Source of the DNA: Mobula hypostoma
Lineage: Eukaryota
NCBI RefSeq assembly: GCF_963921235.1
Contig: NC_086108.1
Location: forward strand, 7,254,001-7,318,000
Length of the DNA: 64,000 nt
Reading direction: 5' to 3'
The notes under the pieces are model-generated. The model searched no databases. It was not told the DNA's origin and saw nothing but the letters and a program-made list of their open reading frames with translations. Positions 697-64,000 of this stretch are shown piece after piece (the first letter of the stretch is position 1; each line of letters begins with the position of its first letter). The position numbers and the translations under genes were made by a program.

Positions 697-1245
697 AACA
701 CAAGAGGTTCTGCAGATGCAGGAAGTTCAAAGTAACACACACAAAATGCTTAAGGAACTCAGCAGGTCAGGCAGCATCTATGGAGGAGAATCAACAGTTG
801 GTGTTTCAGGCTGACACCCTTCTTCAGGACTGGGGGGGGGAGTAGCTCGAATAAGAAAGTGGGGGGAGGGGGAGAGAGAGGACTACAGGCTGACAGGTGA
901 TGGGGAAGATGGGTGGATGAAGTAAGAATATGGGAGGTGATAGGTGGAAAAGGTAAAGGGCTGAAGAATAGGGAATCTGATAGGAGGGGACAGTGGACTA
1001 TGGGAAAAGGGAAGGGGGAGAGGAAACTAGGGGGAAGGTGATAGGGAGATCAGGTGAGGGGAAGGTGGGTGAGGGGGGATGAAGTAAGAAGCTGGCAGGT
1101 GATAGGTGAAGCTAGGCTGGTTGAGGAGGGGTAATGAAGTAAGAAGCTGGCAGGTGACAGGTGGAAGAGGTTAGGGGCTGAAGAAGGAGGAATCTGACAG
1201 GAGAGGAGAGTGGACTATGGGAGAACGGAAAGGAGAAGGGGCACC
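697..1245 (-). mobile_element. Penelope-like 3' end/pLTR fragment with internal duplications
   Basis: pLTR motif aaaatgct..aggaactcagcaggtcaggcagcatctatgg, degenerate hammerhead at 795-832, purine-rich tract. Confidence 0.7.
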
Positions 1246-2039: not shown

Positions 2040-3230
2040 AAAGTGGCTGCAAATTAAATATTAGCATTCATTTTGAGAGGACTAGAATATTGAAGTAATG
2101 ATGTAATCATCATCGTCTTTATGTGCTGATGTGAGCGATCATGGTCTTTGATTGTGATTGATCCTGGCAAATTTTTCTACAGAAGTGGTTTGCCATTGCC
2201 TTCTTCTAGGCAGTGTCTTTACAAGATGGATGACCCCAGCCATTATTAATATTCTTCAGAGATTGTCTATTTGGAGTCAGTGGTCACATAACCAGGACTT
2301 GTGATATGCACTGTCTGCTCCTGTAATGCTGGGGCTTTAATAAGGCATTTGACAGACCACACTTGGAGCATTGTGGGCACCATATCTAAGAAAGGATGTG
2401 CTGGCATTGGAGAGGGTCCACAGAAGGTTCACGAGAATAATTTTGGGAATCAAAGGGTTAACATAAGCATTTGATGGCTGTGGGCCTGTACTCGCTTGAG
2501 TTTAAAAGAAAGGGTGGGGGAATCTCTTTGAGACCTATCAAATATTGAAAAGCCTAGATACAATGGGGCAGTCTAGGAACAGAGGGCACAGCCTCAGAAA
2601 ACAATTTAGAAGAGAGATGAGGAGGAATTTCTTTAGGCAGAGGGTGGTGAATCTGTGGAATTCATTGCCACAGATGGCTGTGAAGACTAAAATACTGGGT
2701 ATATTTAAAGCAGTGGTTGATAGGTTCTTGATTAGTAAAGGTGTCAAAGGTTGAGGAGAGAAGCAGGATAATGGGGTTGAGAGGGGTAATGAATCAGCCA
2801 AGATGGAATGGCAATGCAGATTAGATGGGCCGAATGGCCTACTTCTGCTCCTACGTTTTGTGGTATCCTGCTTGTATGATCACTATCCAGCACACTGTGG
2901 TCACCTTGTCCAGATGAAAAGCCAGAGACACTTGTCCAGTGACCATATTGACCCTTATATTTTGGGTTGGTGGGGCTACAATTAGAGGTCATGGGTTAAG
3001 AGTGAAAGGTGCAAAGTTTAAGGAGAAACATCTTCACTCAAAGGGTGGTGAGAGTGTGATGCATGCCAGCTCGATTTCAACATTTAAGCTAGGTTCAGAT
3101 AGCTACATGGATGGTAAGGGTATGGAGGGCTATGGTCCTGTTTAGGTCAATGGGAGTAGACAGTTTAAATGGTTCAGCATAGACCAGATGGACCAAAGGG
3201 CCTGTTTCTGCACTGTACTTTTCTATGACT
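2040..3230 (+). mobile_element. CR1 3' fragments (two subfamilies) with a nested RTE-type SINE piece
   Basis: RGHSLR...EMRRNFFRQRVVNLWNSLP remnant; CR1 3' UTR. Confidence 0.8.
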
Positions 3231-4812
3231 ATTTGCTTTGCAATAAAAAAAAAGCCATTCAGCCCATCAGTTCTATGCCAGCCATCAGAGCAATTCCATC
3301 AGTCCCATTCACCCCACTTGTTTTCCTAAATCTATTCTCTCCCACTTTATACTTATACTTTATGGTCGCCAAACAATTGGTACTAGAACGTACAATCATC
3401 ACAGTGATATTTGATTCTGCGCTTCCCATTCCCTGAATTACAAATATTAAATATTAAAAATAGTTAAAATTAGTAAATATTAAAAATTTAAATTATAAAT
3501 CATAAATAGAAAATAGAAAAATGGAAAGTAAGGTAGTGCAAAAAAAAACTGAGAGGCAGGTCTGGATATTTGGAGGGTACGGCCCAAATCCGGGTCAGGA
3601 TCCGTTCAGCAGTCTTATCACAGTTGGAAAGAAGCTGTTCCCAAATCTGGCCGTATGAGTCTTCAAGCTCCTGAGCCTTTTCCCGGAGAACTGCCCAACT
3701 GCCCAGATTCTCCTACCTGGGGTAACATGTCCAGTCAATCCTGTAACCAAGATTAGCTTCACATGTCACATGTCCATCAAAATATACCGTGAAATGTGCC
3801 TTTTGCATTCGACATCCAACGTAGTCCGAGCAGGTGCTGGCAGCCTGCCAGTGTTACCACACTTCTGACATAACGTGCCCACAACTCACTAACCTTAACC
3901 CATACTTCTTTGGAAAGGTGGAGGCAACTGGGGCACCTGGGGGAGACATACGTGGGCACAGGGAGAAAGTACAAATATCTTACAGACAGTGGCGGGAATT
4001 GCTATTTTGCTGCCCCCTAACCTCAACGCTCCTCCAGGAGCAGTGCAACCTTGTCCATAGGGTTTGGAGGCTGGAGAGCTACGGTGGCTGGAGCCAGGGC
4101 TTTCTTGGTAGGGTCACCCATGCCAAACAGGTCAAAGGTTAGAAGTCAGACTAAGAGTGGTCCACCGGCCCTTCAGGTTCGGGATTCCGCTCAGGGCAAA
4201 CTACACTGACTGGTTAAAAAAGGAATACTGTTATGGAAACAGCAGTGAAGATTCCTTCTACATCTGAGTGCGATGGTATGGACAGAGAGAGATGGAGGAC
4301 CAGCAGCGAACCGGGCAGTAGGTACATAACTTTTGCACTACCATACTATCCCTTTTAATATGGAAGCCCACCCGGTCCCAGAGAATACATGCACAAGGTT
4401 AGGACCCTTGAGCTACAAGGCCACAACTCTACCTGTTGTGCTATTGAGCCACCCAGCATTGGCTGAGAGAGTGAAAAAGCCATTTATAGATCCCATAAAG
4501 AGAATGAGAGTGCAGATGACATGACTGAAGACTTCTACAAGAAGTCGGAGATTTTTAGAACAAGCATATATTTAATATTCTTGTCCATTTGGTCAGAAAA
4601 TACAAAAAAGAAAGTTGTGAAAGTGAAACAGATATCAGAAACTGCAGTGGTACAAATCAGTAAGTTTCTGTGACACAATGCAATATAAAGATGCTTGCAA
4701 TCTGACGTTCCACATTTAACTACTGAGTGCATTAGTATTCAAACAGCAGACAGAGAAAATGCATTTACCATTAAGACAGAACACAGGTTATAGAAAAGCT
4801 TTAATAGAAAAA

Positions 4813-5195
4813 GTAACACACACAAAATGCTGGAGGAACTCAGCAGGCCAGGCAGCATCTATGGAAAAGAGTAAACAGTCGACATTTCTTCAGGACTGGA
4901 AAGAAAGAGGAGAAATCAGACTAAGAAGGTGGGAGGGGAGGAACAAGTACAAGGTGGCGGTGATAGGTCAAACCAGGAGAGGGGGAGGGGGGTGAGGTAA
5001 AGAGCTGGGAAGTTGATTGGTGGAAGAGATAAAAGGCAGGAGAAAGGGGAATTTGATAGGAGAGGACAGAAGACCATGGAAGAAAGGGAAGGGGGAGGAG
5101 CCCAGGGGGAGGTGATGGGCAGGCAAGGAGGTAAAGTGAGAGGGGAAATGGGGATGGAGAATGGTAAAGTAGGTGAGGGCAATTACTGGAAGTTT
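4813..5195 (-). mobile_element. Penelope-like 3' end fragment
   Basis: Same pLTR and purine-rich tract; hammerhead core partly deleted; ends at aacttccagtaa (NFQ*), which resembles the terminus of a PLE GIY-YIG ORF. Confidence 0.7.
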
Positions 5196-9837: not shown

Positions 9838-10125
9838 TTCATGAGATTCTGCAGATGCTGGAAATCCAGAGTAAGACGTAAGAAAACACACACACGCACA
9901 CAATGCTGGAGGAACTCAGCAGGTCAGGTAGCATCTATGGGGGGAAATGAACAGCTGATGTTTCAGACCACGACCCTTCATCAGGTCCCCTTTCCAGATT
10001 AGGGATTCCCAATCTGGGAACCACAGACCCCTTGCTTAATGGTATTGGTCCAGGCGTAAAAAAAAGTTGGGAACCCCTGCTTTAGTTGTTGCCTGACCTG
10101 CTGAGTTCCTCCAGCATTTTGTGGA
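9838..10125. mobile_element. Penelope-like pLTR with inverted segment and nested hAT-type MITE
   Basis: gctggaggaactcagcaggtcagg ... cctgacctgctgagttcctccagc inverted pair; degenerate hammerhead at ~9952-9988. Confidence 0.65.
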
Positions 10126-16450: not shown

Positions 16451-16608
16451 CAACGCATACAAAATGCTGGAGGAACTCAGCAGGCCAGGCAGCATCTAGG
16501 AAAAGAGTACAGTCGACGTTTCAGGCCGAAACCTTTCGGCAGGACTGAGCTCCTCCAGCACTTTGCGTGTGTTGCTCCGATTTCCAGCATCGGCAGATTT
16601 TCTCATTT
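16451..16608. mobile_element. Penelope-like pLTR insertion with inverted 5' segment
   Basis: 15-bp TSD ataattaaatcactg (16436-16450, 16609-16623); the internal inverted repeat aaaatgctggaggaactcag / ctgagctcctccagcacttt encloses the hammerhead motif. Confidence 0.8.
16510..16547 (-). ncRNA. Minimal hammerhead motif, core variant CUGCCGA
   Basis: Reverse complement CAGUC-CUGCCGA-A-AGG(UUUCGG)CCU-GAAA-C-GUC|GACUG. Confidence 0.6.
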
Positions 16609-34004: not shown

Positions 34005-35350
34005 AGAACATAGACTAGTACAGCACAGAAACAGGCCATTCCGCCCACAATGTTGTGCCAAACCAGCTAAAAAGCAACTCAAAAACAACCAAACACTAAT
34101 CCCTCCTACCTACACCGTTTCCATATCCCTCCATCTTCCTCACATCCACGTGCCTATCCAAACATCTCTTACCAGGCAGCATATTCCAGGCATCCACAAC
34201 TCTCCCAGTGAAACGCTTACTCCACATCCCCTTTGAACCTCCCCCCTTTCACCTACAATGCATGCCCTCTGGTATTAAGACATTTCTACACCAAGAAACA
34301 AATACTCCCTGTCTACACAAACAAGAGGAAATCTGCAGATGCTGGAAACCTGAGCAAAACACACAAAATGCTGGAGAAACTCAGCAGGCCTGGCAGCATC
34401 TATGGAAAAGAGTACAGTCAACATTTTGGGCTGAGCCCCTTCATCAGGACATATTCCCCGTCTGCTCTACCCATGTCTCTCATAACCTTATAAACCTCTA
34501 TCAGATCTCCCCTAAACCCCTACCGCTCCAGAGAAAACTACCCAAGTTTGTCCAGCCTCTCATGATAGGACATGACCACTAAACCAGGCAGCATTCGGAT
34601 AAACCTCTCCAAAGACTCAACATCCTTCCTAGACAATGGAGCAACCGGAACTGCATGCAATACTCCAGACGTGGCCTTACCACATCAGGGTTTCGCTAGC
34701 TGGGTCAAGCCCGAATGAGCTGAGTTGGTGGTGAGGACGGCAAATGCAATGTTAGCATTCATTTCCAGAGGACTAGAATATAAAAGCAAGGATGTAATGT
34801 TGAGATTTTATGAAGCACTGGTGAGGCCTCACTTGGGAGTATTGAGAGCAGTTTTGGGCCCCTTATCTAAGAAAGGATGCGCTGACATTGGAGAGGGTTC
34901 AGAGGAGGTTCACAAAAATGAAAGGCTTGTCATATGAGAAGCCTTTGATGGCTCTGGGCCTGTGCTCACTGAAAGTCAGAAGAATGGGGGGGGGGGATTT
35001 CATTGAAACCTATCAAATGTTGAAAGGCCTCAACAGAGTGGATGTTTCCTATGGTGGGGAGTCTATGACCAGAGGGCACAGCCTCAGAATAGAGGGACAA
35101 CCATTTAGAACTGAAATGAGGAGGAATTTCTTTAGCCAGAGAGTGGTAAATCTGTGGAATTTGTTTCCACTTGCGGCTGTGGAGGCCAAGTCATTGGGTA
35201 TACTTAAGGCAGAGGTTGATAGATTCTTGATTGGTCAGGGCATGAAGGGATATGGGGAGAAGGCAGGAGGCTGGGGCTGAGCGGGAAATGGATGCGGCAT
35301 GATGAAATGGCGGAGCAGACTCAATGGCCTAATTCTTCTCCTACATCTTT
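34005..35350. mobile_element. Two CR1 3' fragments in opposite orientation (34005-34683 minus, 34720-35350 plus)
   Basis: ANAMLAFISRGLEYKSK, RRNFFSQRVVNLWN. Confidence 0.85.
34315..34450 (-). mobile_element. Penelope-like pLTR fragment inserted in CR1
   Basis: pLTR consensus with CpG-decayed hammerhead; diverged TSD atactccctgtct / atattccccgtct. Confidence 0.7.
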
Positions 35351-35598
35351 TGGAATGGTTGGAGGTTTTCTTTGCTCCTATGTGCGCACGTACACCTGCA
35401 TTTGAGTACAAACTTGACTTTGAATTTGGGGTTGTTCAGAAGGACAGGGAAGAGAAGTAGCAGAGTTGGCAGCATGGTCGCGTAGCAGTTACAGCGCCAG
35501 CCATCCATGTTGGACCCCGCCACTGTCTGTAAGGAGTTTGCACTCTCCCCATGACAGCGTGGATTTCCTCACACATTCCAAAGACGGTTTGGGTTGGA

Positions 35599-35632
35599 GT
35601 CCTGAAGATGGGTCTCAGCCCGAAACGTTGAC
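35599..35632 (+). ncRNA. Minimal hammerhead motif
   Basis: GUC-CUGAAGA-U-GGG(UCUCAG)CCC-GAAA-C-GUU|GAC. Confidence 0.6.
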
Positions 35633-35736
35633 AGTTAACTCCTTGTCCCACAGATGCTGTCTGACCTGCTGAGTTCCTCCAGCGTTATGTGTGTGTTACT
35701 CTGGACTTCCAGTATCTGCAGATTTTCCCGTGTTTG
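35601..35736 (+). mobile_element. Penelope-like pLTR fragment inserted in a V-SINE
   Basis: TSD tgggttggagt on both sides; same pLTR sequence (gatgctg.ctgacctgctgagttcctccagc...tctgcaga) as the other copies. Confidence 0.75.
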
Positions 35737-59420: not shown

Positions 59421-61015
59421 CTCCAGGTGTTGCCATAAAGGAACAGAGACGACGGGCTTTCTGTATTAGAGGTTGAGCAGAGCGGGATTTATAATCTTTG
59501 GAAGTTAGGAGAGAAATCTGACAAGGAGACCTCACTGAAATCCACAGAATTCTTACAGGATGGACGTAGAAGGGACACTTCCTACGGCTGAGGGGTTTAG
59601 GACTAGGAACGGGGCCAGAGCAAGACATTTAGGGCAGAGGTGAGGAAACATCTCTTCGCTCAGATTGGTGAACCTTTGGAGTTTTGACCCCCCCCCCCCC
59701 GCCACCAAAAAGGGCTGCAGAGACCCAGTCATGGTTTCCATTATAGGTTCGGAGACTTCAGGACATACCGCGCCCCAACAAATCCCCACCATTCAGAATT
59801 GGCTATCAATTTAAAAGTGATAATTGAGTTGGCATGCAAATGGAATTTATTCACCTGAGGGGCAGACTTCAAATGAAGATGGTTTTAAAAAAAAAGATTA
59901 TATATAAAAAAAACACAAAATGAACTCTGAGCAACGCACACAAAATGCTGGAGCAATTCAGCAGGCCAGGCATCTATGGAAAAGAGTACAGTCGATATTT
60001 CGGACTGAGACCTTTCAACACAGTTACGACCCCGGTGACCACAGGTTCAATTCTTGCCACTGTCAGTGAGGAGTTTGTACATTCTCCCTGTGGCCGCATG
60101 GATTTCCTCCAGGTGCTCCGGTTTCCTCCCACATTCCAAAGATATACAGGTTAGGAGGATAATTGGTCACATGGGTGTATTTAGGCAGCGCAGGCTTGGG
60201 CCAGCAGGGCCTGTTACCATCACCACAAAACAAAGTGAACTGCACGCTCAGCAATGTGGGAAGAGGAATGGTCCGGTTTGACTTCACACGGAGAATGACT
60301 GAGCTCAGGAGGAAGTGCAAAACCTTTCTCAAAAAGAGACAGGGTTGAGTTCCAACAGCGTCCCCAAGGGCCCCCTCTCTACCATCCAGAAGAAAAAGGA
60401 AGGGGTGCCTCTCCAGGTTACACACCCCAATCTGGGAATATAATTGTCCCTTCCTGCCCAAGGGTGGTAGATGTAGGCTTCATTTTCTACATCTCCTCAC
60501 TTTCTCCCTCCCTCCATCTTGACTGCATGTTACAGGAGCACCATTCAGAGCGCCCTGACAGGTTGCATCTCCATCTGGTCTGGGAGCAGCAGAACATCAG
60601 ACCGGAAGTCCCTACAAAGGCCTGTAAGAATGGCCAAGAGGATCATAAGGGTCTCCCTAGTATCCGCTGGGGACATTTATCAGGAGTGCTGTGTACACAG
60701 GGCCCTTAGTATTATCAAGGATCCCACCCACCCATCCAGCATTCTCGTTGACTTTCTACCATCAGGCAGGAGACTACGATGCATAAAGACAAGAACAGTT
60801 AGGATGGGAAACAGCTTCTTTCCTCAGGTCATTAGGCTTCTGAACTCCCTGCCGCATCGCATTCAAAGTGTCACTGGATAATCTGTTCTGTACCTGACAA
60901 TATTTAATATTAATGCACTTCAGTTTGTTATTTATGCAGGATTCATTTAAGTAATTGTGTTATGTGTACTACTTTGCTTTACACCCTGGTTTGAAGAAAC
61001 ATTGTCTTGTTTCTA

Positions 61016-62610: not shown

Positions 62611-63367
62611 TATATACATTATATGGTTATATATGTTACATGCATGTATATAGTGAAATGACAATAAACTTGACTTGGCATGACTTGGTTAAGGATGGCT
62701 GCTGTGTAAAGTTGGACTGGAGGGCATCCAGGAAGAGCTAGAGCTAATTGGATGTACATTGGCTTGTTGGCAAGAGGCAGAGGCTGATGGAGGAAGCTTG
62801 AGTTTTTTTGGATTGGGAAACTGCGATTTGTAGTGTTCCCCAGGAGTTGGCGCCAAGAACATTGCTATGTGTCACCTACGTCAGTGAGAACGTACAAGGC
62901 ATCGGGGTGGCGGGGTGGAGGTGTGAGGTGCTCCTTCCCTCCGCTAGCCTGCAGGTCACCCTTGGGCAAGGTGTAGCACCTGCTTAGCCCCCTATTCAGG
63001 GTAACGTGAACCCATGGGAGCAAGTCGTATGAGCAGCTGGTGCATATCACAACTCCTGGTATGTGAAACCAGGCAGGCAGTCTCTGAAGAATATTGATAA
63101 GGCTGCAGTCACCTGCCTTGTAAAGACACTGCCCAGAAGGCGGCAATGGCAAACCACTTCTGTAGAAAAGTTTGCCATGAGCAATCATGGTCATGGAAAG
63201 TTGTCACATAACAATAAGGCATGGTCAGTAAATTTGCAGGGGCCATTAAAAGAGATGGTTTCATGGACAGTGAAGGTGGCTATCAGGGATTAATTAGAGG
63301 TCTTGATCTGCTGGGAAAGTGGGCCAAAGAATGGGAGATGCAGTTTAATTCAGGTAAGTGTAAGATG

Positions 63368-63697
63368 CAACTTTGATGTATGTTGCTTGAATTTCCAGCA
63401 TCTGCAGAATTCCCGTTGTTTGCGTTTAAATTCACTACTGCGAAGCCTCTTCCGGTGATGCCTACACCGAAGAAGTTTAGATCCTCTCTTCGACGGGAGT
63501 TCAGTGAAACCATCTCTCACTGCTCCCCATCTCTTTCAAATCCCTTACTCACTCTTCCTTCAGTTAGTCCTGACGAAGGGTCTCGGCCTGAAACGTCGAC
63601 TGCGCTTCTTCCTATAGATGCTGCCTGGCCTGCTGCATTCACCAGCAACTTTGATGTATGTTGCTTGAATTTCCAGCATCTGCAGAATTCCTGTTGT
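63368..63697 (+). mobile_element. Mini Penelope-derived, retrozyme-like element with terminal direct repeats and a hammerhead motif
   Basis: 13-bp TSD taagtgtaagatg (63355-63367, 63698-63710) inside a CR1 fragment; ~52-bp direct repeats starting at 63368 and 63646 (period 278); internal CUGACGA...GAAAC GUC motif. Confidence 0.85.
63566..63601 (+). ncRNA. Minimal type I hammerhead ribozyme motif
   Basis: AGUC-CUGACGA-AGG(GUCUCGG)CCU-GAAA-C-GUC|GACU: helix I 4 bp, helix II 3 bp, palindromic ACGU in place of helix III; predicted cleavage after 63597. Confidence 0.8.
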
Positions 63698-64000
63698 TAA
63701 GTGTAAGATGTTGCATTTTGGGAAGAGAAATCTGGGTAGGATTATCACAATGGGGAGCGTTGCAGAACAGAGAGACCTTGAAATACAAGTACACAGTTCC
63801 CTGAACATGATGTCACATGTGGACAGGGTGGTGAAGAACTTTGACCTCTAACCATGATCTTTCAGGACGTTAACCGAGATGTCAGATTGCAGTTGTACAC
63901 AGTTTCGTTCCACGGTGTTTTTGTTTCGCGGCTGCCTGCAGAAGGCTGAATCAGAGGTGTATTCTGCATACCTGCTTAGATAATAAATGTACTTTGAATC

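Follow-up and report, generated by a model that had tools for sequence, protein, structure and literature searches.

A hammerhead-bearing short insertion in Mobula hypostoma, probably an internally deleted by-product of an abundant Penelope-like element

The stretch of DNA analyzed here (the window) comprises 64,000 nucleotides of Mobula hypostoma (NCBI RefSeq assembly GCF_963921235.1, contig NC_086108.1, positions 7,254,001 to 7,318,000 of the forward strand) and carries, close to its right end, a 330-bp insertion with a single minimal hammerhead ribozyme. The insertion probably derives from an abundant and recently active Penelope-like element (PLE) with an endonuclease, of which it would be a non-autonomous copy with an internal deletion, produced as a rare by-product of that family. 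It corresponds to a PLE of the type found at a near-full locus, L080, minus ~3.2 kb, and the two remaining parts are joined at unit 165/166 (63532/63533), where the unit is 278 nt long and its position n lies at 63367+n of the window. The evidence favors a dead-on-arrival by-product over a self-propagating ribozyme circle. The retained parts would be those around the start of PLE reverse transcription, namely the end of the pseudo-long terminal repeat (pLTR), the leader, 25 codons of the open reading frame (ORF), 33 nt of the 3' untranslated region (3'UTR), and the full hammerhead-bearing pLTR.

Anatomy of the Insertion

The element (63368-63697) is flanked on both sides by an exact 13-nt direct repeat (TAAGTGTAAGATG), and its termini repeat each other over 52-54 nt with one mismatch at a spacing of 278 nt, which makes it 1.2 turns of the 278-nt unit (Table 1). 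A sequence-only reading, made earlier from the letters of the window, had described the 330-bp insertion, its 13-bp target-site duplication, the ~52-nt terminal repeat, the 278-nt unit, and the single hammerhead core, and all of these were found in the sequence. The translated flanks are collinear on one ORF of the reverse transcriptase (RT) type, resembling those of long interspersed nuclear elements (LINEs), and overlap exactly at the codons of the duplicated 13 nt; the site is therefore a genuine insertion with a target-site duplication. Neither of the two 50-aa host flank pieces matched Pfam in a Pfam search. The inverted 5' piece seen at many related loci (see below) is absent from the window copy.

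The Parent Penelope-Like Element

All genome searches were made in the window's own assembly (3.48 Gb in 200 contigs). A profile search with the GIY-YIG endonuclease domain (PF01541) gave 39 matches among 150 scored candidates, and 30 loci were then fetched. The hammerhead-plus-tail module of the window element (unit 156-278 plus 1-~53) was present in 15 of these 30 GIY-YIG loci at 84-98% identity, and two further ones (L066 and L071) had weaker partial matches to it (76-83%). At the L077 locus, a GIY-YIG frame (27.6 bits; Pfam cut-off, 22.6) is accompanied by an RVT_1-like frame (E 6e-6, below the cut-off), and the hammerhead-bearing pLTR module lies ~250 nt after the ORF.

The near-full PLE copy, L080 (C50:25534001-25539200), was found through a query with the RT part. 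Its 5' part matches unit 1-165 at 96.4% and comprises the pLTR end, the leader, and an ORF start reading MPAPKKFRSSLRREFSETISHCSPSVISS, with a 460-aa frame that starts MPAPKKFRSS; its 532-aa frame matches RVT_1 (E 1.3e-5) and GIY-YIG (E 0.0012; 19.5 bits, below the cut-off); and its 3' end matches unit 156-278 plus 1-61 at 93-95%, hammerhead included. L080 has a terminal direct repeat of its own, 72 nt in length. The leader, ORF start, RT/GIY-YIG frame, and hammerhead pLTR of this locus bear out the earlier proposal that the insertion is a Penelope element stripped of nearly its whole ORF, and the same comparison proves correct the assignment of the ATG and its 25 codons to the beginning of a Penelope ORF, here joined to the pLTR. 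The window element has no RT or GIY-YIG ORF. Because only 25 codons remain while the parent copies carry RT/GIY-YIG, it is a derivative and not an autonomous member of the PLE family.

Genome-wide, a 28-mer of the PLE 3'UTR was counted 22,491 times and a 31-mer of the PLE 5' part 719 times, and the parent family is very large, young, and recently active. We found no published description of this PLE family in the literature.

The coding region of L080 is laid out as two frames (1054-2433 and 2570-4165), and many PLE copies likewise show an N-terminal frame together with the recurrent 532-aa RT/GIY-YIG frame, the two overlapping or abutting in different reading frames; a shared frameshift, an intron, or decay may account for this layout. 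A query with the N-terminal region (L077:5560-6165) gave mixed matches with very long frames; residues 34-174 of this query match, at 94%, places with 800-1600-aa open frames (e.g., G000:C45:113963781-113964203, 1625 aa). These matches could represent another element or a host gene that shares a domain.

The Deletion Junction

A 34-mer across 63532/63533, with up to two mismatches allowed, occurs three times in the 3.48 Gb: one occurrence is in the window and two are in L002 (C50:8152364-8152971), an array of 2.4 units 835 kb away. The flanks of the two loci are unrelated. Three occurrences at two loci come close to the junction unique to this place that the sequence-only reading itself had named as speaking against its proposal. 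No flanking duplication was found at L002. The left end of this array (L002 1340-1433; G000:C50) runs into a (GGGTCT)n-like simple repeat resembling the helix II segment of the hammerhead.

For comparison, 38 sister loci were taken as the best genome matches to the 330-bp element, leaving aside L003, which overlaps the place of L002, and L040, which duplicates L038. Among 40 scored matches, 26 cover only the part up to 63532/63533, and the 25 at 100% stop exactly there. The remaining short copies have 24 different end points of the PLE ORF part (ORF +24 to +123), and this part is joined to targets between unit ~127 and the first hammerhead bases, mostly from unit ~165 onward. The joins have microhomologies of 2-6 nt or fillers of 1-3 nt, and 49 instances yielded 40 distinct strings. 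The variants are nested on both sides, indicating that they do not descend from one deleted master and that most are independent events; a few junctions are common to two or three loci (e.g., L012/L026 and L009/L038).

An anchored genome-wide pattern (an 18-mer of the ORF start, a gap of 30-60 nt, and the hammerhead core) recovered 39 units in 33 loci, with only three new to the sister sample; this census is a lower bound, since older copies escape exact anchors and some arrays have longer units. Because these 33 loci stand against 22,491 3'UTR 28-mers, 719 5' 31-mers, and 32,886 exact hammerheads, the short copies are rare by-products of the parent family. In assembled contigs from four of 22 sequencing runs (whose kind we guessed), the pLTR module is very deep and the internal part ~100-1000 times lower; these contigs break at 63532/63533, and none is listed across the junction.

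The deletion would be a rare event, most likely produced when the RT switched template between the sequence immediately preceding the hammerhead and the ORF start. We prefer a template switch because the donor points cluster where insertions tend to end and because the joins show microhomology or fillers. Splicing is an unlikely alternative that concerns the window variant only: a PLE transcript would have lost nearly the whole ORF as a ~3.2-kb GT...AG intron and would then have been reverse-transcribed by the PLE machinery. The position of the junction is unambiguous, the last base of the 5' part directly precedes GTAAT/GTGAT in the parent (CATCT/GTAAT, the slash marking the border), and the first base of the 3' part directly follows CCAR (CCAR/CTTT), itself preceded by ~17 pyrimidines in a row; among the first 100 listed of the 22,491 PLE 3'UTRs, AG and AA occur about equally often, and spliceosomal introns are known in PLEs (PMC4209133, in part; here and below, "in part" marks papers cited for their available sections). 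However, L080 itself has AA and not AG, very few of the remaining ~24 or more types of junction lie at GT...AG borders, and one chance fit is not unlikely given the number of junctions (~10% by a rough estimate). Regular splicing in a family of this size would also put the junction at far more than two loci.

An origin at the DNA level, in which an in situ deletion in a full-length PLE was followed by unequal crossing-over between pLTRs and no special RNA template was involved, appears slightly less probable still. Unequal exchange would be favored by direct pLTR repeats spaced ~280 nt apart, the array units differ by only 0-4 positions, and flanking duplications would survive such an expansion. 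However, the same junction occurs at a second locus with unrelated flanks, which requires at least one copying step by retrotransposition; the short element in the window is directly bounded by a 13-bp duplication of its own, and its left end is a 5' truncation inside the pLTR, as expected of reverse transcription.

Insertion Signature of the Sister Loci

Flanking direct repeats of 9-17 nt were found at 28 of the 38 sister loci. The 3' ends fall into two fixed classes ~36 nt apart, at unit 15-20 (13/38) and at unit 51-59 (15/38), with 10 loci unplaced; the window copy has the long-form end, and the RT/GIY-YIG loci have both classes too. The 5' ends are variable, with 17/38 at unit 187-213, at or just before the hammerhead, and only 2/38 at the hammerhead cleavage site. 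The left pLTR is present in most sister loci. An inverted 5' piece, as a rule beginning at one of the two 3'-end classes, occurs in 16/38 and is a frequent but not obligatory trait of PLE insertion. Many exact hammerheads in the genome stand as head-to-head inverted pairs tens of nt apart (C1:109232/109303, C1:2546804/2546840, and C1:4659450/4659496), which fits the inverted 5' pieces typical of PLE insertions. The frame that runs from the retained ATG (63458), which in the window has 80 codons and begins MPTPKKFRSSLRREFSETISHCSPS, varies from 8 to 200 codons across 38 sister units and is therefore not a conserved gene.

From this signature we infer that the PLE's own enzyme made the short copies, and the leader and ORF start may have been retained because they flank the reverse-transcription start sites. 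The insertion in the window would have been carried out in trans by the PLE reverse transcriptase/GIY-YIG endonuclease. Reverse transcription would begin at the fixed long-form site at the pLTR end (unit ~52) and run back through one unit, and an early stop inside the preceding pLTR would leave the 52-nt terminal redundancy and the 13-bp target-site duplication. A linear RNA of more than one unit, coming from a sibling array with the same junction, is the most likely template, since the only other locus with this junction is the L002 array.

It is extremely improbable that the element is instead a short interspersed nuclear element (SINE) with an L2/UnaL2-type 3' tail, mobilized by a LINE. The terminal repeat has a weak Rfam match to the UnaL2 3' element (15.9 bits, E 6.8), and the element sits in a LINE-like ORF. 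However, this match is far under the gathering score of 55 bits, and the inverted 5' pieces, like the two classes of 3' ends, are typical of PLEs. The SINE explanation was set aside because the same tail terminates RT/GIY-YIG elements, and it is contradicted by the PLE parent.

The Hammerhead

The hammerhead at 63566-63601 reads AGUC-CUGACGA-A-GGGUCUCGGCCU-GAAA-CG-UC/GACU, the slash marking the predicted cut. It consists of helix I (AGUC/GACU, 4 bp), the CUGACGA box, an extra A, a helix II of ~4 bp (GGGU..GCCU), GAAA, a palindromic C-G pair without a helix III loop, and U-C at the predicted cut. Minimal hammerhead ribozymes (min-HHRs) of PLE pLTRs were described by Cervera and de la Pena in 2014 (PMC4209133, in part), and the window hammerhead shows their features: CUGANGA and GAAA boxes, U-H at the cut, a helix I of 4-5 bp, an extra base between 9 and 10.1, and a palindromic 15.2-16.2. 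In place of the conserved G10.1-C11.1 pair of min-HHRs, the window hammerhead shows G.U (alternatively, a shifted A-U); a C in this place is found in 6/73 sister hammerheads and also in PLE loci and older copies.

Recognition was solely by a purpose-written descriptor modelled on PMC4209133, which 63 of the 73 hammerheads in sister loci and 17 of the 24 in PLE loci passed; no Rfam hammerhead model matched the region, neither at the gathering score nor at E<=10. A relaxed min-HHR pattern matched four times in the window against 0.33 expected, a number that 0 of 100 shuffles reached, and three of the four matches sit in homologous modules. The exact 36-nt hammerhead is present 32,886 times in the genome. 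Folding predictions for the monomer favor inactive alternative pairings over the hammerhead fold. In these predictions, the CUGACGAAGGG box is paired with CUCUUC..CUUCAG, a pyrimidine stretch immediately 5' of the hammerhead (63548-63582, unit 181-215); as predicted, this pairing would keep the ribozyme inactive in the monomer.

Variability within the unit is lowest in the hammerhead and the 3' tail (mean minor fraction 0.023 vs 0.03-0.05 elsewhere) and highest, among sister copies, in the 3'UTR remnant (63533-63565). Compared with the rest of the unit, the lower variability of the hammerhead has a one-sided p of 0.019 for CpG columns and 0.075 for non-CpG columns, which is weak evidence because the family is young. 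The pLTR tail stem AGATGCUG/CAGCAUCU is almost invariant in the copies read, so that covariation is uninformative either way. The hammerhead is an inherited passenger of the pLTR, and with a single hammerhead the window copy cannot release a unit-length RNA.

Tandem Arrays and the Retrozyme Question

Two or three descriptor-intact hammerheads, on one strand and 240-310 nt apart, were found in 16/36 sister loci, and L081 (G000:C2:157816101-157818300, minus strand) is a four-unit array with a period of 310 nt and four descriptor-intact hammerheads. L081 keeps a longer ORF-start piece, joined a few nt before the hammerhead, has the short-form 3' end, and is the most retrozyme-like locus seen. According to the operational rule of a 2026 preprint (10.64898/2026.07.22.740005, in part), a non-LTR retrozyme is a tandem repeat with at least two consecutive units, each with a complete type I hammerhead; the 16/36 sister loci and L081 qualify under this rule, and the window copy, with 1.2 units and one hammerhead, does not. 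For most arrays the junction was at no other locus sampled or listed, and the units within an array differ at 0-4 positions.

The sequence-only reading had regarded the insertion as a PLE-to-retrozyme intermediate copied from a circular or tandem RNA. The broader notion behind it, retrozyme-like arrays arising from PLEs, is already published and agrees with the sister arrays that carry two to four hammerheads; a circular-RNA or retrozyme origin is not supported for the window copy. The 1.2-turn shape gives no support to a circular RNA, as the parent L080 has a 72-nt redundancy and partial tandems are the published PLE default. Nor is a retrozyme family supported: the window unit is not amplified, its junction being at two loci and the junctions of the sister loci being different, with 24 end points of the 5' part among them. 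The sequence-only reading had named permuted start points as support for a retrozyme family; the 3' ends are not permuted and fall into the two fixed classes.

A strict retrozyme, in which the 278-nt unit is transcribed, cut by the hammerhead as a dimer, circularized, and reverse-transcribed by rolling circle, would yield both more-than-unit insertions and arrays, and on sequence grounds we give it little credence. The sister arrays with two to four descriptor-intact hammerheads (16/36 loci and L081) would agree with such a cycle, as would the junctions that are identical in all units of arrays and absent from the other loci sampled or listed, and the low variability of the hammerhead and 3' tail; circular templates have been proposed for PLEs (PMC4209133, in part) and shown for other animal retrozymes (PMC7229834, in part). 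However, the window copy carries one hammerhead, and its junction is at two loci in the whole assembly; the 3' ends are fixed and not permuted; and 5' ends at the cleavage site are few (2/38) against those at unit 187-213 (17/38). The parent PLE is equally redundant without being a small circle; hammerhead cleavage proved unnecessary for the insertion of an anole PLE in vitro, and no reads ended at the cut (PMC11167929); and the hammerhead is minimal and not of the canonical type, with loop-loop contacts, of the 2020 definition (PMC7229834, in part), as its helix III lacks a loop, its helix I has 4 bp, and no Rfam model matches it.

A broader possibility is that an active PLE repeatedly spawns short hammerhead-bearing tandem units via multimeric or circular RNA of the short unit and rolling-circle reverse transcription, instead of serial template jumps or DNA duplication at a later stage, so that the birth of retrozymes would be caught in the act. 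This reading draws on at least 33 loci, at least 24 junctions, arrays of up to four units, and one junction per array; we regard it as doubtful, though less so than the strict retrozyme.

Several observations weigh against the origin that we favor, an internally deleted by-product made by template switching and copied from a linear RNA. One junction runs throughout all units of an array (2/2 in L002, 3/3 in L004, 3/3 in L030, and 2/2 in L010), a uniformity that would hardly result from serial template jumps and that requires either a template that was multimeric or circular or else unequal exchange among the pLTRs afterward. The borders of the window junction are also compatible with a GT...AG intron, so that something other than template switching may have made the deletion. 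The three units that share this junction (the one in the window and both of L002) show four differences each from one another in a star-like pattern, which does not give the direction of descent. As to the parent, the GIY-YIG match of L080 is under the Pfam cut-off, and RVT_1 is under the cut-off in all copies tested. Finally, the sister loci were chosen as best matches, and thus shorter or longer relatives are under-sampled; arrays with periods of 310, 427, and 435 exist.

Features of the Window

The window also contains seven older copies of the pLTR module alone (Table 1), which look like solo-pLTR insertions, that is, very short reverse-transcription products. The copy at 34321-34450 splits a LINE-like ORF, and its flanking duplication is degenerate. 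Where the hammerhead part is readable, the min-HHR pattern is kept at 9957-9984 and 35602-35629, and the core is broken in 700-831 and 16465-16546.

Table 1. Components of the insertion, its host sequence, and older pLTR-module copies in the window
Feature	Position	Strand	Basis
Left target-site duplication, TAAGTGTAAGATG	63355-63367	.	Direct repeat
Right target-site duplication, same 13 nt as left	63698-63710	.	Direct repeat
Whole insertion, 5'-truncated and internally deleted PLE, 1.2 turns of the 278-nt unit	63368-63697	+	Terminal repeat, comparison with L080
Partial left pLTR, final ~54 nt of the pLTR (unit 1-54), recurring at 63646-63697	63368-63421	+	Matches L080 1031-1084
PLE 5' leader (unit 55-90)	63422-63457	+	Contiguous in L080 within unit 1-165 at 96.4%
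Opening 25 codons of the PLE ORF (MPTPKKFRSSLRREFSETISHCSPS)	63458-63532	+	L080 reads MPAPKKFRSSLRREFSETISHCSPS, continuing as the 460-aa frame
Deletion junction, ORF codon 25 fused to PLE 3'UTR, ~3.2 kb gone	63532-63533	+	Three occurrences genome-wide
PLE 3'UTR remnant directly upstream of the hammerhead (unit 166-198)	63533-63565	+	Comparison with L080
Minimal type I hammerhead of the pLTR, predicted cut 63597/63598	63566-63601	+	Descriptor match; 32,886 identical genome copies
Remainder of the right pLTR to the long-form 3' end (unit 235-278 plus 1-52)	63602-63697	+	Comparison of end classes
Optional tail extension of ~36 nt between the two 3'-end classes of the family (unit ~17-52), approximate	63662-63697	+	Ends of sister loci; PLE tail in PMC11167929 and PMC8557442 (in part)
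Host sequence on the left side, from a decayed LINE-like RT-type ORF that the insertion interrupts	63218-63367	+	E 5e-08 to L080 minus-strand ORF, residues 10-57
Host sequence, right part of the same LINE-like ORF	63699-63848	+	E 1e-06, residues 54-104
Older pLTR-module copy	34321-34450	-	73-85% identity (range for the seven copies) to the hammerhead-plus-tail module
Older pLTR-module copy	700-831	-	As above
Older pLTR-module copy	16465-16546	-	As above
Older pLTR-module copy	35598-35725	+	As above
Older pLTR-module copy	4811-4888	-	As above
Older pLTR-module copy	9904-9985	-	As above
Older pLTR-module copy	59930-60016	-	As above

Comparison with Known Systems

Taken alone, the window locus is ordinary, one rare by-product of a PLE family with tens of thousands of copies. 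Its value is that of a clean worked example, in which the parent, the deletion borders, the insertion ends, and a sibling locus can be read at base resolution. The kind of element is already in print, including in the 2026 preprint by Li, Clavereau, and Pollet (10.64898/2026.07.22.740005, in part), which covers one cartilaginous fish. The ~33 sister loci with junctions of their own provide junction-level support for the published PLE origin of animal retrozymes, an idea that so far rests mainly on cross-species co-occurrence and on pLTR phylogeny in frogs.

Partial tandems that make pseudo-LTRs are the default architecture of PLEs (PMC8557442, in part; PMC11167929), and an optional tail of 30-40 bp and inverted 5'-truncated copies are among the PLE hallmarks (PMC8557442, in part). 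Endonuclease-bearing (EN+) PLEs of the Penelope/Poseidon/Neptune type (PMC4209133 and PMC8557442, both in part; PMC11167929) resemble the window element and its family in the partial-tandem pLTRs, the min-HHR, the optional tail, and the flanking duplications; inverted 5'-truncated pieces are common to them and the sister loci, and the parent has RT plus GIY-YIG as they do. The window copy differs from them in having no RT/EN ORF.

In the anole PLE, reverse transcription was shown to start at two internal sites, the tail being the stretch between them, both DNA strands were extended, and the RNA needed for the reaction mapped to the pLTR-ORF junction (PMC11167929). The two fixed 3'-end classes and the inverted 5' pieces reported here agree, in a distant vertebrate, with the internal-initiation model drawn from that in vitro work. 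The positions are different: in the present family the hammerhead and both RT start sites lie upstream of the ATG, whereas the anole element has a hammerhead that overlaps its start codon, and RT start sites 111-118 nt inside the ORF (PMC11167929).

Published descriptions of animal non-LTR retrozymes give them short units repeated in tandem, canonical type I hammerheads, and expression as circles (PMC7229834, in part). The preprint reports retrozymes in 20 of 31 vertebrates, including its single Chondrichthyes species, with a mean consensus of 363 bp in that species, and it argues for a PLE origin, the Xenopus retrozyme consensus sequences being related to PLE termini (10.64898/2026.07.22.740005, in part). 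Like these retrozymes, the window unit is a few hundred nt long, non-coding, equipped with a type I hammerhead, and related to PLE pLTRs, and some of the sister loci are likewise tandem arrays with a hammerhead in each unit (both papers in part). Unlike them, the window copy is a 1.2-unit "monomer" with one minimal hammerhead, and each locus has its own junction without an amplified family.

The window element is also reminiscent of the R2/R1 SIDEs, short internally deleted elements in which the 5' ribozyme-bearing part and the 3' part of an autonomous retroelement are joined and the ORF is lost (Eickbush and Eickbush, 2012; PMC3414825, in part). In the same way its 5' and 3' parts are joined, its ORF is lost, and the insertion hallmarks of the parent are kept. 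For the SIDEs, mobilization in trans by the machinery of the parent and template jumps have been invoked, and we propose much the same for the window element. The R2 SIDEs have a 5' ribozyme resembling that of hepatitis delta virus and insert site-specifically, whereas the window family has a hammerhead in a repeated pLTR and dispersed insertion (PMC3414825, in part). Non-autonomous derivatives of Chlamys PLEs, such as MRC1 in Chlamydomonas, are internally deleted as well (PMC8557442, in part); they belong to another PLE clade and host kingdom and form amplified families, whereas the products of the present PLE are mostly one-off.

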